Assembly (NCBI RefSeq): GCF_036507355.1
Contig: NZ_AP027877.1
Strand: one strand, 5' to 3'
Source of the DNA: Escherichia coli
GTDB taxonomy: Bacteria > Pseudomonadota > Gammaproteobacteria > Enterobacterales > Enterobacteriaceae
DNA length: 64,000 bases
This document shows, piece by piece, positions 21,350 to 33,667 of the stretch. Position numbers and translations under genes: made by a program. Position 1 is the first letter of the stretch. Every line of letters starts with the position of its first letter. Under the pieces are notes generated by a model, which saw only the letters and a program-made list of their open reading frames with translations, was not told the origin of the DNA and did not search any database.

Positions 21350-22102
21350 ATGACCATTAAAAATGTAATTTGCGATATCGACGGCGTGCTGATGCACGAT
21401 AACGTCGCCGTACCGGGTGCAGCGGAATTTTTGCACGGGATTATGGATAAAGGCCTGCCGCTGGTGTTGCTGACCAACTATCCTTCGCAGACCGGGCAAG
21501 ATCTGGCGAACCGCTTTGCCACTGCCGGTGTCGATGTACCTGACAGCGTGTTTTATACCTCTGCGATGGCGACCGCCGATTTCCTGCGTCGCCAGGAAGG
21601 CAAGAAAGCGTATGTGGTGGGCGAAGGCGCGCTGATTCATGAGCTGTACAAAGCCGGTTTCACTATTACCGATGTGAACCCTGATTTTGTGATTGTTGGC
21701 GAAACTCGTTCCTACAACTGGGACATGATGCATAAAGCAGCTTATTTCGTCGCTAACGGTGCACGCTTTATCGCCACCAACCCGGACACCCACGGGCGCG
21801 GTTTTTATCCGGCCTGTGGCGCGTTGTGTGCAGGGATTGAGAAAATCTCCGGGCGCAAACCATTCTATGTGGGTAAGCCGAGTCCGTGGATCATCCGCGC
21901 GGCATTAAACAAAATGCAGGCCCACTCGGAAGAAACGGTGATTGTCGGCGATAACCTGCGTACCGACATTCTGGCGGGCTTCCAGGCGGGTCTGGAGACG
22001 ATTCTGGTGCTTTCTGGTGTTTCATCGCTCGACGATATCGACAGTATGCCTTTCCGCCCAAGCTGGATTTACCCGTCAGTCGCTGAAATCGACGTTATCT
22101 GA
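21350..22102 (+). CDS. nagD: HAD-family UMP phosphatase NagD/UmpH (250 aa)
   Basis: ORF 21350..22102; HAD motif I DIDGVL. Confidence 0.95.
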   Translation: MTIKNVICDIDGVLMHDNVAVPGAAEFLHGIMDKGLPLVLLTNYPSQTGQDLANRFATAGVDVPDSVFYTSAMATADFLRRQEGKKAYVVGEGALIHELYKAGFTITDVNPDFVIVGETRSYNWDMMHKAAYFVANGARFIATNPDTHGRGFYPACGALCAGIEKISGRKPFYVGKPSPWIIRAALNKMQAHSEETVIVGDNLRTDILAGFQAGLETILVLSGVSSLDDIDSMPFRPSWIYPSVAEIDVI

Positions 22103-22107
22103 ATAGC

Positions 22108-22140
22108 AACCACGTCTCAGGACGTGGTTTCTTATTTTTA
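22108..22140 (+). terminator. Rho-independent terminator of the nagBACD operon
   Basis: aaccacgtctcaggacgtggtttcttattttt: hairpin plus T-tract 6 nt after the nagD stop. Confidence 0.75.
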
Positions 22141-22358
22141 CCCATCATTAAAATCATTCCATTCAATAAAACCCGCCAAAAATTATCGATCCATCAATAA
22201 ATACATCACCGCACCCTCCCCTTTTTCACAAATCAGCAATCACCATTACGTTTTTTATTTTTTCACCGCCAAATCGCTTGCGCACAGTGCTGCTTTGCGG
22301 CATTTTTTTAAACAAGCAAACACAACAAGCAACAAATACCAGGTTAACGGAGAAGGTT

Positions 22359-24023
22359 ATGTGTTCAATTTTTGGCGTATTCGATATCAAAACAGACGCA
22401 GTTGAGCTGCGGAAGAAAGCACTCGAGCTGTCACGCCTGATGCGTCATCGTGGCCCGGACTGGTCCGGTATTTATGCCAGCGATAACGCCATTCTCGCCC
22501 ACGAACGTCTGTCAATTGTTGACGTTAACGCGGGGGCGCAACCTCTCTATAACCAACAAAAAACTCATGTACTGGCGGTAAACGGTGAAATCTACAACCA
22601 CCAGGCATTGCGCGCTGAATATGGCGATCGTTATCAGTTCCAGACAGGGTCTGACTGTGAAGTGATCCTCGCGCTGTATCAGGAAAAAGGGCCGGAATTT
22701 CTCGACGACTTGCAGGGCATGTTTGCCTTTGCCCTGTACGACAGCGAAAAAGATGCCTACCTGATTGGTCGCGACCATCTGGGGATCATCCCACTGTATA
22801 TGGGCTATGACGAACACGGTCAGCTGTATGTGGCCTCAGAAATGAAAGCGCTGGTGCCAGTTTGCCGCACGATTAAAGAGTTCCCGGCGGGGAGCTATTT
22901 GTGGAGCCAGGACGGCGAAATCCGTTCTTACTATCATCGCGACTGGTTCGACTACGATGCGGTGAAAGATAACGTGACCGACAAAAACGAGCTGCGTCAG
23001 GCTCTGGAAGATTCCGTTAAAAGCCATCTGATGTCTGATGTGCCTTACGGTGTGCTGCTTTCTGGTGGTCTGGATTCCTCAATTATTTCCGCTATCACCA
23101 AGAAATACGCAGCCCGTCGCGTGGAAGATCAGGAACGCTCTGAAGCCTGGTGGCCGCAGTTACACTCCTTTGCTGTAGGCCTGCCGGGTTCACCGGATCT
23201 GAAAGCAGCCCAGGAAGTGGCAAACCATCTGGGCACGGTGCATCACGAAATTCACTTCACTGTACAGGAAGGTCTGGATGCCATCCGCGACGTGATTTAC
23301 CACATCGAAACCTATGATGTGACCACTATTCGCGCTTCAACACCGATGTATTTAATGTCGCGTAAGATCAAAGCGATGGGCATTAAAATGGTGCTGTCCG
23401 GTGAAGGTTCTGATGAAGTGTTTGGCGGTTATCTTTACTTCCACAAAGCGCCGAACGCTAAAGAACTGCATGAAGAGACGGTGCGTAAATTGCTAGCCCT
23501 GCATATGTATGACTGCGCCCGTGCCAACAAAGCGATGTCCGCCTGGGGCGTGGAAGCACGCGTTCCGTTCCTCGATAAGAAATTCCTTGATGTGGCGATG
23601 CGTATTAACCCACAGGATAAAATGTGCGGTAACGGCAAGATGGAAAAACACATCCTGCGTGAATGTTTTGAGTCGTACCTGCCTGCAAGTGTTGCCTGGC
23701 GGCAGAAAGAGCAGTTCTCCGATGGCGTCGGTTACAGTTGGATCGACACCCTGAAAGAAGTGGCGGCGCAGCAGGTTTCTGATCAGCAACTGGAAACTGC
23801 CCGCTTCCGCTTCCCGTACAACACGCCGACCTCAAAAGAAGCGTATCTGTACCGGGAGATCTTTGAAGAACTGTTCCCGCTTCCAAGCGCCGCTGAGTGC
23901 GTGCCGGGCGGTCCTTCCGTCGCGTGTTCTTCCGCTAAAGCGATCGAATGGGATGAAGCGTTCAAGAAAATGGACGATCCGTCTGGTCGTGCGGTTGGTG
24001 TTCACCAGTCGCCGTATAAGTAA
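22359..24023 (+). CDS. asnB: Asparagine synthetase B, glutamine-hydrolysing (554 aa)
   Basis: ORF 22278..24023; ATG at 22359 gives MCSIFGVFDIK... (N-terminal catalytic Cys of class II amidotransferase); SGGLDSS PP-loop. Confidence 0.96.
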   Translation: MCSIFGVFDIKTDAVELRKKALELSRLMRHRGPDWSGIYASDNAILAHERLSIVDVNAGAQPLYNQQKTHVLAVNGEIYNHQALRAEYGDRYQFQTGSDCEVILALYQEKGPEFLDDLQGMFAFALYDSEKDAYLIGRDHLGIIPLYMGYDEHGQLYVASEMKALVPVCRTIKEFPAGSYLWSQDGEIRSYYHRDWFDYDAVKDNVTDKNELRQALEDSVKSHLMSDVPYGVLLSGGLDSSIISAITKKYAARRVEDQERSEAWWPQLHSFAVGLPGSPDLKAAQEVANHLGTVHHEIHFTVQEGLDAIRDVIYHIETYDVTTIRASTPMYLMSRKIKAMGIKMVLSGEGSDEVFGGYLYFHKAPNAKELHEETVRKLLALHMYDCARANKAMSAWGVEARVPFLDKKFLDVAMRINPQDKMCGNGKMEKHILRECFESYLPASVAWRQKEQFSDGVGYSWIDTLKEVAAQQVSDQQLETARFRFPYNTPTSKEAYLYREIFEELFPLPSAAECVPGGPSVACSSAKAIEWDEAFKKMDDPSGRAVGVHQSPYK

Positions 24024-24402: not shown

Positions 24403-24479
24403 GGCTACGTAGCTCAGTTGGTTAGAGCACATCACTCATAATGATGGGGTCACAGGTTCGAATCCCGTCGTAGCCACCA
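24403..24479 (+). tRNA. metT: tRNA-Met (anticodon CAU, elongator)
   Basis: GGCTACGTAGCTCAGTTGG...CGTCGTAGCCACCA; cloverleaf with anticodon loop cuCAUaa; encoded CCA. Confidence 0.95.
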
Positions 24480-24487
24480 TCTTTTTT

Positions 24488-24572
24488 GCGGGAGTGGCGA
24501 AATTGGTAGACGCACCAGATTTAGGTTCTGGCGCCGCAAGGTGTGCGAGTTCAAGTCTCGCCTCCCGCACCA
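24488..24572 (+). tRNA. leuW: tRNA-Leu (anticodon UAG), class II with long variable arm
   Basis: GCGGGAGTGGCGAAATTGG...CTCGCCTCCCGCACCA; anticodon loop uuUAGgu. Confidence 0.95.
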
Positions 24573-24595
24573 TTCACCAGAAAGCGTTGTACGGA

Positions 24596-24670
24596 TGGGG
24601 TATCGCCAAGCGGTAAGGCACCGGTTTTTGATACCGGCATTCCCTGGTTCGAATCCAGGTACCCCAGCCA
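24596..24670 (+). tRNA. glnU: tRNA-Gln (anticodon UUG)
   Basis: TGGGGTATCGCCAAGCGGTAAGGCACCGGTTTTTGATACCGG...CCCCAGCCA. Confidence 0.95.
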
Positions 24671-24704
24671 TCTTCTTCGAGTAAGCGGTTCACCGCCCGG
24701 TTAT

Positions 24705-24779
24705 TGGGGTATCGCCAAGCGGTAAGGCACCGGTTTTTGATACCGGCATTCCCTGGTTCGAATCCAGGTACCCCAGCCA
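24705..24779 (+). tRNA. glnW: tRNA-Gln (anticodon UUG), duplicate of the preceding gene
   Basis: Same sequence as glnU; the upstream spacer is also duplicated. Confidence 0.95.
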
Positions 24780-24794
24780 TCGAAGAAACAATCT

Positions 24795-24871
24795 GGCTAC
24801 GTAGCTCAGTTGGTTAGAGCACATCACTCATAATGATGGGGTCACAGGTTCGAATCCCGTCGTAGCCACCA
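24795..24871 (+). tRNA. metU: tRNA-Met (anticodon CAU, elongator), second copy
   Basis: Same sequence as metT. Confidence 0.95.
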
Positions 24872-24919
24872 AATTCTGAATGTGTCGAATATGTTCGGCA
24901 AATTCAAAAACCAATTTGT

Positions 24920-24994
24920 TGGGGTATCGCCAAGCGGTAAGGCACCGGATTCTGATTCCGGCATTCCGAGGTTCGAATCCTCGTACCCCAGCCA
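24920..24994 (+). tRNA. glnV: tRNA-Gln (anticodon CUG)
   Basis: TGGGGTATCGCCAAGCGGTAAGGCACCGGATTCTGATTCCGG...CCCCAGCCA. Confidence 0.95.
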
Positions 24995-25031
24995 ATTTAT
25001 TCAAGACGCTTACCTTGTAAGTGCACCCAGT

Positions 25032-25106
25032 TGGGGTATCGCCAAGCGGTAAGGCACCGGATTCTGATTCCGGCATTCCGAGGTTCGAATCCTCGTACCC
25101 CAGCCA
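25032..25106 (+). tRNA. glnX: tRNA-Gln (anticodon CUG), second copy
   Basis: Same sequence as glnV. Confidence 0.95.
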
Positions 25107-32267: not shown

Positions 32268-32589
32268 ATAACAATATTCTCCTATCCAACTTTGGCACAT
32301 CTATTGCTTTGTTATACAAGGCAAAGCTTTAACCAGCATCAGTACAACCCGGTTGCACCACAGCAATCCGCCGGTAGCACCAAAAGAGTGCATTTTAAGA
32401 ATTTTGCTTCGGAATGGTGCGGTGCACTTCGCAAAAACAAACAATAAAACATCAATATCTTTACATTTAGCCAAACTAAATGTTACCTAACAGTCACAAC
32501 ACTGCACAATAAAGTTGCAGACGATAACAACACAAACACTCACAACGGGTATCCATGCGTTCTTAACGCAGAAGATAAAGGAGTTGGAT

Positions 32590-33498
32590 ATGCAATTACG
32601 TAAACCTGCCACAGCAATCCTAGCCCTTGCGCTTTCCGCAGGACTGGCACAGGCAGATGACGCCGCCCCGGCAGCGGGCAGTACGCTGGACAAAATCGCC
32701 AAAAACGGCGTGATTGTCGTCGGTCACCGTGAATCTTCAGTACCTTTCTCTTATTACGACAATCAGCAAAAAGTGGTGGGTTATTCGCAGGATTACTCCA
32801 ACGCCATTGTTGAAGCAGTGAAAAAGAAACTCAACAAACCGGACTTGCAGGTGAAATTGATTCCGATCACCTCACAAAACCGTATTCCTCTTCTGCAAAA
32901 CGGCACTTTCGATTTTGAATGTGGTTCTACCACCAACAACGTCGAACGCCAAAAACAGGCGGCTTTCTCTGACACTATTTTCGTGGTCGGTACGCGCCTG
33001 TTGACCAAAAAGGGCGGCGATATCAAAGATTTTGCCGACCTGAAAGGCAAAGCCGTAGTCGTCACTTCCGGCACTACCTCTGAAGTTTTGCTCAACAAAC
33101 TGAATGAAGAGCAAAAAATGAATATGCGCATCATCAGCGCCAAAGATCACGGTGACTCTTTCCGTACCCTGGAAAGCGGTCGTGCCGTTGCCTTTATGAT
33201 GGATGATGCTCTGCTGGCCGGTGAACGTGCGAAAGCGAAGAAACCAGACAACTGGGATATCGTCGGCAAGCCGCAGTCTCAGGAAGCCTACGGTTGCATG
33301 TTGCGTAAAGACGATCCGCAGTTCAAAAAGCTGATGGATGACACTATCGCTCAGGTGCAGACCTCCGGCGAAGCGGAAAAATGGTTTGATAAATGGTTCA
33401 AAAATCCCATTCCGCCGAAAAACCTGAACATGAATTTCGAACTGTCAGACGAAATGAAAGCACTGTTCAAAGAACCGAATGACAAGGCACTGAACTAA
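32590..33498 (+). CDS. gltI: Glutamate/aspartate ABC transporter periplasmic binding protein GltI (302 aa)
   Basis: ORF 32515..33498; ATG at 32590 preceded by AAGGAG; signal peptide MQLRKPATAILALALSAGLAQA. Confidence 0.93.
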   Translation: MQLRKPATAILALALSAGLAQADDAAPAAGSTLDKIAKNGVIVVGHRESSVPFSYYDNQQKVVGYSQDYSNAIVEAVKKKLNKPDLQVKLIPITSQNRIPLLQNGTFDFECGSTTNNVERQKQAAFSDTIFVVGTRLLTKKGGDIKDFADLKGKAVVVTSGTTSEVLLNKLNEEQKMNMRIISAKDHGDSFRTLESGRAVAFMMDDALLAGERAKAKKPDNWDIVGKPQSQEAYGCMLRKDDPQFKKLMDDTIAQVQTSGEAEKWFDKWFKNPIPPKNLNMNFELSDEMKALFKEPNDKALN

Positions 33499-33654
33499 TT
33501 ACAAGAACCAGGGGCGGAAATTCTAGCCCTCTCGATTGTTACGTAGCACGGACAGACTATACGCCTGATGGTCGTTCCCCATCGGGCCTGAAAACCGCAA
33601 TACGCTGGGTAACAATCTTCGAGGGTAGCAGTTAACGCTGCTACCCTCTTTTTT
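33499..33654 (+). ncRNA. sroC: SroC sRNA (GcvB sponge) processed from the gltI-gltJ spacer; 5' end approximate
   Basis: The 169-bp gltI-gltJ spacer ends in hairpin gagggtagcagttaacgctgctaccctc plus T6; sequence recalled as the sroC locus of E. coli/Salmonella. Confidence 0.7.
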
Positions 33655-33667
33655 CTGGAGTAGATTT

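Follow-up and report, generated by a model that had tools for sequence, protein, structure and literature searches.

The strongly CA-rich tract that precedes asnB in the window (the whole stretch of 64,000 nucleotides, or 64 kb, of Escherichia coli DNA that was analysed) is very probably both the body of the 45-nt asnB 5' UTR and the target site of the R1 seed of the small RNA GcvB. The part played by the tract in GcvB control is already known in the literature, and a conspicuous compositional oddity is accounted for as an ordinary feature, without anything new. The value added by the present analysis is comparative: the site was placed at +2 to +28 of a mapped leader, a neighbouring terminator-like hairpin was assigned to promoter DNA, and complementarity to R1 was found to be kept among species while the sequence itself was not. 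The in vivo interaction between GcvB and asnB, the repression through R1 and the transcription start site (TSS) come from the literature and not from this analysis, and the exact asnB-GcvB base pairs (22315-22341) are those of a predicted duplex.

GcvB is an Hfq-dependent small RNA with a GU-rich, single-stranded seed region, R1; it is abundant in nutrient-rich exponential growth and is induced by GcvA and glycine. Sharma and co-workers, in 2007 and 2011, reportedly described C/A-rich GcvB R1 sites in amino-acid mRNAs, such as those of gltI, dppA, oppA and yifK. The entry for asnB in Table 1 of Miyakoshi et al. 2021 gives R1 as the seed and grades the target as 'Verified' in E. coli and 'Conserved' in Salmonella (PMC9299463). 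The same source reports 133 RIL-seq chimeras between asnB and GcvB, all from one LB-exponential data set and with 0 in the other three of the four data sets tabulated, together with 58 hybrids from CLASH, and puts the MAPS enrichment at 37.8; it credits the verification to Lalaouna et al. 2019. Both AsnA and AsnB have also been cited as repressed by GcvB (PMC8614746). The sequence-only reading had described the tract as not explained by any annotated feature, which holds for the genome annotation and fails for the literature. The suggestion that a factor other than CsrA binds the tract was borne out by the place of asnB in the literature among the verified R1 targets of an Hfq-dependent sRNA. 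Since the tract is the only R1 complement of a leader whose gene is a verified R1 target, its partner is taken to be this specific sRNA and not an unnamed protein. A CsrA site was not found: a single GGA, within the Shine-Dalgarno (SD) sequence ACGGAG, was present and none occurred in the CA tract, whereas a CsrA site needs at least two, as a rule one in the loop of a hairpin and another over the SD. A scan of 21800-22700 against Rfam at a permissive E-value likewise returned only hits far below the gathering score, the best with 21 bits against a threshold of 114.

Gene order, promoter and extent of the asnB leader

The tract lies in the nagD(umpH)-asnB junction at about 22 kb of the window, and a 501-nt query across this junction found a match in 5424 of the 5426 complete E. 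coli genomes; the genes annotated there (RefSeq) are asnB and nagD. The coordinates of the features are collected in Table 1. The interval singled out earlier as the asnB leader, 22140-22358, was found to be the entire nagD-asnB intergenic region without the terminator stem. Its end is consistent with the asnB ATG, and the mapped TSS supports its description as a leader for the last 45 nt only (22314-22358); the remainder, 22140-22313, takes in the end of the nagD terminator, the conserved motifs further upstream and the promoter.

Table 1. Features of the nagD-asnB junction (positions in the window)
Feature	Position	Strand	Basis
nagD ORF end	22102		ORF list
nagD (umpH) intrinsic terminator, 9-bp hairpin (22108-22129) followed by TCTTATTTTT	22108-22139	+	Terminator scan, inverted repeat, nagD end, homologous E. 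coli annotation
Two copies of TCAATAAA (22163-22170 and 22194-22201), 31 bp spacing	22163-22201		Direct repeat; conserved across Enterobacteriaceae
T-rich tract GTTTTTTATTTTTTCA, possibly UP-element-like	22250-22265	+	-64 to -49 from the TSS; column identity 0.69, partly conserved
-35 hexamer TTGCGC of the asnB sigma-70 promoter	22278-22283	+	Conservation, 17-nt spacer, Cho et al. 2014 Table S6
Invariant block TTGCGGCATTTT with -10 hexamer CATTTT (22301-22306)	22295-22306	+	Column identity 0.98
asnB TSS (A), 5' UTR of 45 nt	22314	+	Cho et al. 2014 Table S6, K-12 coordinates transferred
C/A-rich GcvB R1 target site	22315-22341	+	Predicted pairing to GcvB nt 62-91, 24 bp; literature, asnB verified R1 target
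Shine-Dalgarno GGAG inside conserved TTAACGGAGAAGG	22349-22352	+	6 nt upstream of ATG; SD block column identity 0.92
asnB CDS, asparagine synthetase B, 554 aa	22359-24023	+	ORF; 100% protein identity to E. coli AsnB; RefSeq annotation

The spacer between nagD and asnB measures 256 nt in the window, compared with 396 nt in K-12 MG1655. The extra segment of MG1655, REP/BIME-like by eye (gcctgatgcgctacgcttatcaggcctac ... tgtaggccggataaggcg ... gcatccggca), directly follows the nagD terminator hairpin and stands in place of the T-run of the window (22130-22160 region); the difference is an insertion/deletion polymorphism within E. coli. Directly 3' of asnB, seven tRNA genes (Met-CAT, Leu-TAG, two Gln-TTG, Met-CAT and two Gln-CTG) occupy 24403-25106, a cluster which we take to be the E. 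coli metT-leuW-glnU-glnW-metU-glnV-glnX operon.

An asnB TSS at 698445(-), with 72 reads, sigma-70 binding and a promoter motif, is given by Cho et al. 2014 (Table S6). The asnB start in that coordinate system is 698400, which places the TSS 45 nt upstream of the ATG, and the promoter-leader of MG1655 is identical to that of the window; the TSS is therefore A22314 and the 5' UTR 45 nt long. Upstream of this position, in an alignment of 22 Enterobacteriaceae (A1), the CTTGC(G)C block at 22277-22283 presented a column identity of 0.94, with CTTGC invariant, and CGGCATTTT was invariant as well, its final T lying 8 nt upstream of the mapped TSS. The promoter reads TTGCGC-17-CATTTT, the 17-nt stretch between the hexamers being variable. 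It was not detected in a consensus sigma-70 scan, each hexamer matching the consensus at only three of six positions, and its recognition came from conservation together with the published TSS and sigma-70 ChIP data. Sigma-32-like and sigma-54-like readings of the invariant GCGGCATTTT block, compared with the consensus sequences, were dropped, sigma-70 being the sole sigma factor recorded at the TSS. Two weak, minor 5' ends are also assigned to asnB in K-12, namely 698787 (18 reads) and 698862 (3 reads), which correspond to about 22112 in the window, within the nagD terminator hairpin, and to about 22037, within the end of the nagD coding sequence; both are possible products of read-through or processing.

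The promoter spacer and -10 region are overlapped by a hairpin, AGTGCTGC-TTT-GCGGCATT plus T7 (22286-22311, with the stem-loop at 22286-22304), that was returned by the terminator scan and has an 8-bp stem with four GC pairs and a 3-nt loop. An attenuator or terminator within a longer leader, with the CA tract as its downstream flank, was considered on account of this 8-bp stem followed by TTTTTTT and of the weak upstream 5' ends in K-12 (698787 and 698862), and is judged extremely unlikely. Among the 22 species, 58.5% of the cells were able to pair, against a mean of 58.6% for shuffles, and no compensatory pair was found; the 3' arm is invariant in sequence whereas the 5' arm varies freely (alignment A1). 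Furthermore, the invariant blocks fit a -35/17 nt/-10 promoter, the mapped TSS (72 reads, sigma-70) lies downstream of the hairpin, and no upstream leader peptide initiated by ATG was seen by eye in 22140-22300. The hairpin and T7 at 22286-22311 are promoter DNA, and neither an attenuator nor a conserved RNA structure. The block of the 3' arm, GCGGCATT(TT), is conserved beyond the needs of a -10 element, which could hint at an overlapping protein site.

Further upstream, the two TCAATAAA copies lie at about -150 and -120 from the asnB TSS. When 19 Enterobacteriaceae species were aligned (A2), the blocks ATTCAATAAAA and TCATCAATAAA were conserved and the intervening sequence was variable. The pair resembles a phased operator and is a candidate transcription-factor site. 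An 11-nt perfect inverted repeat, CGCCAAAAATT / AATTTTTGGCG, connects 22174-22184 with 22367-22377 (asnB codons 3-7), a match improbable by chance in 321 nt, and shorter complements at a similar distance were found in several species; MG1655 carries one mismatch within the repeat. Conserved long-range pairing through this repeat was rejected, its upstream arm lying in the variable segment between the two conserved motifs and upstream of the main TSS, and the repeat is judged fortuitous.

Composition, structure and R1 complementarity of the tract

The strong CA-richness claimed for the tract was confirmed: the string quoted in support of it, acaagcaaacacaacaagcaacaaatacc at 22312-22340, contains 17 A, 9 C, 2 G and 1 T, that is, 26 A+C in 29 positions (90%). 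With 27 A+C in 30 positions, the 30-mer of the tract is joint most CA-rich in the 64-kb window with both strands counted, a value reached by four of about 64,000 30-mers on the plus strand and by none on the minus strand. Five ACA triplets, of which four are transcribed, occur in 22310-22341, compared with 0.38 expected from their frequency in the window, and the 9-nt sequence AACAAGCAA is directly repeated in the tract (22311-22319 and 22324-22332). The description of the leader as poor in structure also proved accurate, the RNA 22312-22400 having a minimum free energy of -7.4 kcal/mol compared with -10.8 +/- 2.4 kcal/mol for dinucleotide shuffles (z = +1.43); 194 of the 200 shuffles folded at least as well as the native RNA.

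A 13-nt perfect seed within the tract, GCAAACACAACAA (22316-22328), complementary to nt 78-90 of GcvB (MG1655 gcvB), exceeds in length every other R1 complement of the window, both strands included. An exact or one-mismatch match to the seed occurs once in the window, compared with 0.25 expected from shuffles, and within the asnB leader R1 complementarity is confined to the CA tract. The runner-up, with 10 nt (32526-32535), falls in the 5' UTR of gltI; as the validated site of a classic GcvB target with an upstream C/A-rich element, it served as an internal positive control. The predicted asnB/R1 duplex comprises 24 bp with a hybrid energy of -29.0 kcal/mol, from which opening costs of 8.1 (GcvB) and only 2.8 (CA tract of the mRNA) leave a net value of -18.2 kcal/mol, close to the -19.4 kcal/mol of the gltI control. 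The predicted site extends from -44 to -18 relative to the AUG. These values were obtained with duplexes of R1 only plus opening energies, since RNAduplex with full-length GcvB gave meaningless whole-molecule duplexes. The discriminating statistic is the length of the exact seed, as asnB does not stand out by raw duplex energy when accessibility is left aside: its -29.0 was about 2.4 standard deviations lower than the average of 60-nt tiles, and still lower values were obtained for some coding tiles rich in GC. The gcvB gene lies outside the 64-kb window; of 5426 complete E. coli genomes, 5425 carry it, 5389 of these with at least 99% identity.

Two GcvB R1 targets, asnB and gltI, are present in the window, about 10 kb apart. 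The R1 site in the gltI 5' UTR, gataacaacacaaacactcacaacggg at 32512-32549 (gltI ATG at 32590), is predicted to form a 32-bp duplex. The gltI-gltJ spacer (33499-33667) is presumably the origin of SroC, a sponge of GcvB, in E. coli and Salmonella.

A chance fluctuation of composition without function could be argued from a second 30-mer of near-equal CA content at about 62770, which is merely a gene end and an A-run before a terminator, and is effectively refuted by the evidence, namely the extreme composition of the tract, its place within a 5' UTR, an R1 seed unequalled in the window, the complementarity kept across families and the experiments reported in the literature. That 30-mer, at 62770-62800, is the only other one of near-equal content and covers the 3' end of a gene (…caaccgcacactaa), behind which stand an A8 run and the hairpin of a terminator; it lacks a long stretch able to pair with GcvB R1.

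The A-rich composition also recalls the motifs of the Hfq distal face; Hfq binds A-R-N repeats, which in many cases are associated with the SD (PMC4104026). The tract carries AAC-AAG, two consecutive A-R-N triplets, twice, once within each AACAAGCAA copy. A primary role as an Hfq distal-face (A-R-N)n platform, or as a site for another sRNA or protein, is nevertheless very unlikely: at most two consecutive A-R-N triplets occur in any frame, where three are required, part of the first AACAAG copy precedes the TSS, an Hfq contact would add to the pairing with GcvB and not replace it, and the literature on asnB with GcvB or Hfq/sRNA gave no other sRNA partner.

Complementarity among species and the enhancer alternative

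Conservation of the tract across Enterobacteriaceae had been proposed as a check on its significance. Primary sequence did not pass this check, as the segment from the -10 element to the SD is the least conserved of the promoter-leader, with indels and a column identity of 0.64 compared with 0.92-0.98 for the -35, -10 and SD blocks; CA-richness and R1 complementarity, on the other hand, were retained across Enterobacteriaceae and Yersiniaceae. Among E. coli genomes, 2845 carry the 85-nt promoter-leader with at least 99% identity and a further 1616 with 95-99%.

Complementarity was evaluated at 80 AsnB loci, one genome per species, by comparing the longest complement of each leader to R1 with that to 500 composition-matched R1 shuffles; the E. 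coli R1 sequence was applied to all species, and the statistics ignore their shared ancestry. The longest mean complement was found in Enterobacteriaceae (24 loci), with 8.25 nt compared with 5.61 +/- 0.51 nt for shuffles, 0 of 500 of which reached the observed value, followed by Yersiniaceae/Hafniaceae and neighbours (13 loci), with 6.85 nt compared with 5.35 +/- 0.38 nt (4/500). In Pectobacteriaceae (5 loci), Orbales (4 loci) and Vibrionaceae and others (23 loci), complementarity was absent, with means of 4.4, 4.25 and 5.17 nt, respectively, compared with 4.86, 4.84 and 5.12 nt for shuffles (462/500, 481/500 and 196/500), and Erwiniaceae (11 loci) were indistinguishable from chance, with 5.73 nt compared with 5.27 nt (73/500); none of these four groups exceeded the level of chance. 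According to the literature, Pectobacteriaceae, Orbales, Vibrionaceae and Erwiniaceae possess GcvB. Because complementarity is missing in groups that have the sRNA, the regulation of asnB by GcvB is lineage-restricted. Where the complementarity is present, the register differs between lineages: the seed of E. coli falls in the 3' part of R1 (nt 78-90 in Escherichia), compared with nt 75-85 in Pluralibacter and with the 5' part (nt 64-76) in the orthologues of Enterobacter, Serratia and Yersinia. The asnB leader is thus a tidy example of target-site turnover of an sRNA, with the register shifting across Enterobacteriaceae and Yersiniaceae.

The same comparison bears on whether the tract acts only as a constitutive translational enhancer or standby site for 30S/S1, its complementarity to GcvB being a by-product of composition. 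The four transcribed ACA motifs and the very low structure would suit such an element, in yifK and dppA motifs of this kind stimulate translation by an effect that does not depend on GcvB, and reversed R1, which has the same composition, gave fairly long matches in the Enterobacteriaceae leaders (a mean of 7.04 nt, compared with 8.25 nt for the true seed), so that composition explains part of the signal. True R1, however, outperformed both the reversed seed and 500 of 500 composition-matched shuffles in Enterobacteriaceae, no other R1 match in the window equals the perfect 13-nt one, and asnB is listed as a direct R1 target by three independent interactome methods and a reporter study. An enhancer as the sole function is accordingly not likely, and we consider it improbable, while an enhancer as a co-function beside GcvB control is likely, by analogy with the related leaders.

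Proposed regulation and likeness to known systems

The CA tract combines a seed complement, a position in a transcribed 5' UTR, accessibility and conserved complementarity, which are the features of a GcvB R1 target; it also presents those of an ACA/CA-rich enhancer, with ACA motifs upstream of the SD in an unstructured region. The earlier idea that such a tract acts as a translational enhancer is made plausible for asnB by analogy, since ACA motifs act in this way in yifK, dppA and gltI, and the tract likely matters for translation. In the literature, most GcvB targets carry CA-rich repeats in or beside the ribosome-binding site (Yang et al. 2014, PMC3879156). The 27-nt element of gltI was found there to be a transferable translational enhancer, and the ACA motifs of yifK and dppA were found to stimulate translation independently of GcvB and to be silenced by it (PMC3879156).

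During rich growth, GcvB R1 would pair with the asnB mRNA from +2 to +28 and repress the synthesis of AsnB, as part of a global shutdown of amino-acid synthesis and uptake. In the most likely mechanism, drawn by analogy, the unpaired ACA-rich tract would attract the 30S subunit, perhaps through S1, as a landing site or enhancer. The GcvB-Hfq duplex would then mask this element and encroach on the 5' edge of the ribosome footprint, which would reduce initiation. The untranslated mRNA would be more exposed to RNase E, and a secondary destabilisation may follow, by analogy with gltI, yifK and dppA. The predicted duplex stops 8 nt upstream of the SD, plain occlusion of the SD is therefore not expected, and enhancer masking is, by the same analogy, the mechanism suggested for GcvB at asnB. 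As the pairing starts at +2, GcvB might also affect decay of the asnB mRNA that depends on its 5' end.

More tentatively, the asnB leader may be a dual-function module, in which an enhancer that recruits 30S/S1 is also a GcvB silencer. Selection would then act on a CA/ACA-rich leader that pairs somewhere on R1 and not on a fixed sequence; the register would have been re-invented by lineage, and Pectobacteriaceae, Erwiniaceae and Vibrionaceae would have lost the site or never acquired it. We regard this broader proposal as a possibility worth stating, held with distinctly less assurance than the assignment of the tract to GcvB R1. The assignment itself places AsnB, the asparagine synthetase that depends on glutamine, in the GcvB regulon, by which the synthesis and import of amino acids are held back at nutrient plenty.

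Three known systems are comparable to the asnB tract. The leader resembles the Hfq (A-R-N)n motifs in being A-rich, with AAC-AAG pairs near the ribosome-binding site, and differs from a canonical (ARN)3-4 tract in having only two consecutive triplets per run. It resembles the ACA/CA-repeat enhancers of gltI, yifK and dppA (PMC3879156) in its multiple ACA motifs upstream of the SD, in the lack of structure and in the coincidence of these motifs with the GcvB site, the enhancer of asnB being putative. The closest likeness is to the GcvB R1 sites of gltI, dppA, oppA and yifK, with which asnB shares a CA-rich, unstructured 5' UTR just upstream of the SD and a long R1 seed; it is alike, too, as the gene of an amino-acid biosynthetic enzyme, is itself a listed member of this group, and differs in nothing essential. 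Compared with the other R1 sites, that of asnB is missing outside Enterobacteriaceae, Yersiniaceae and Hafniaceae among the 80 loci, and it starts at +2 and fills nearly the whole 45-nt UTR.
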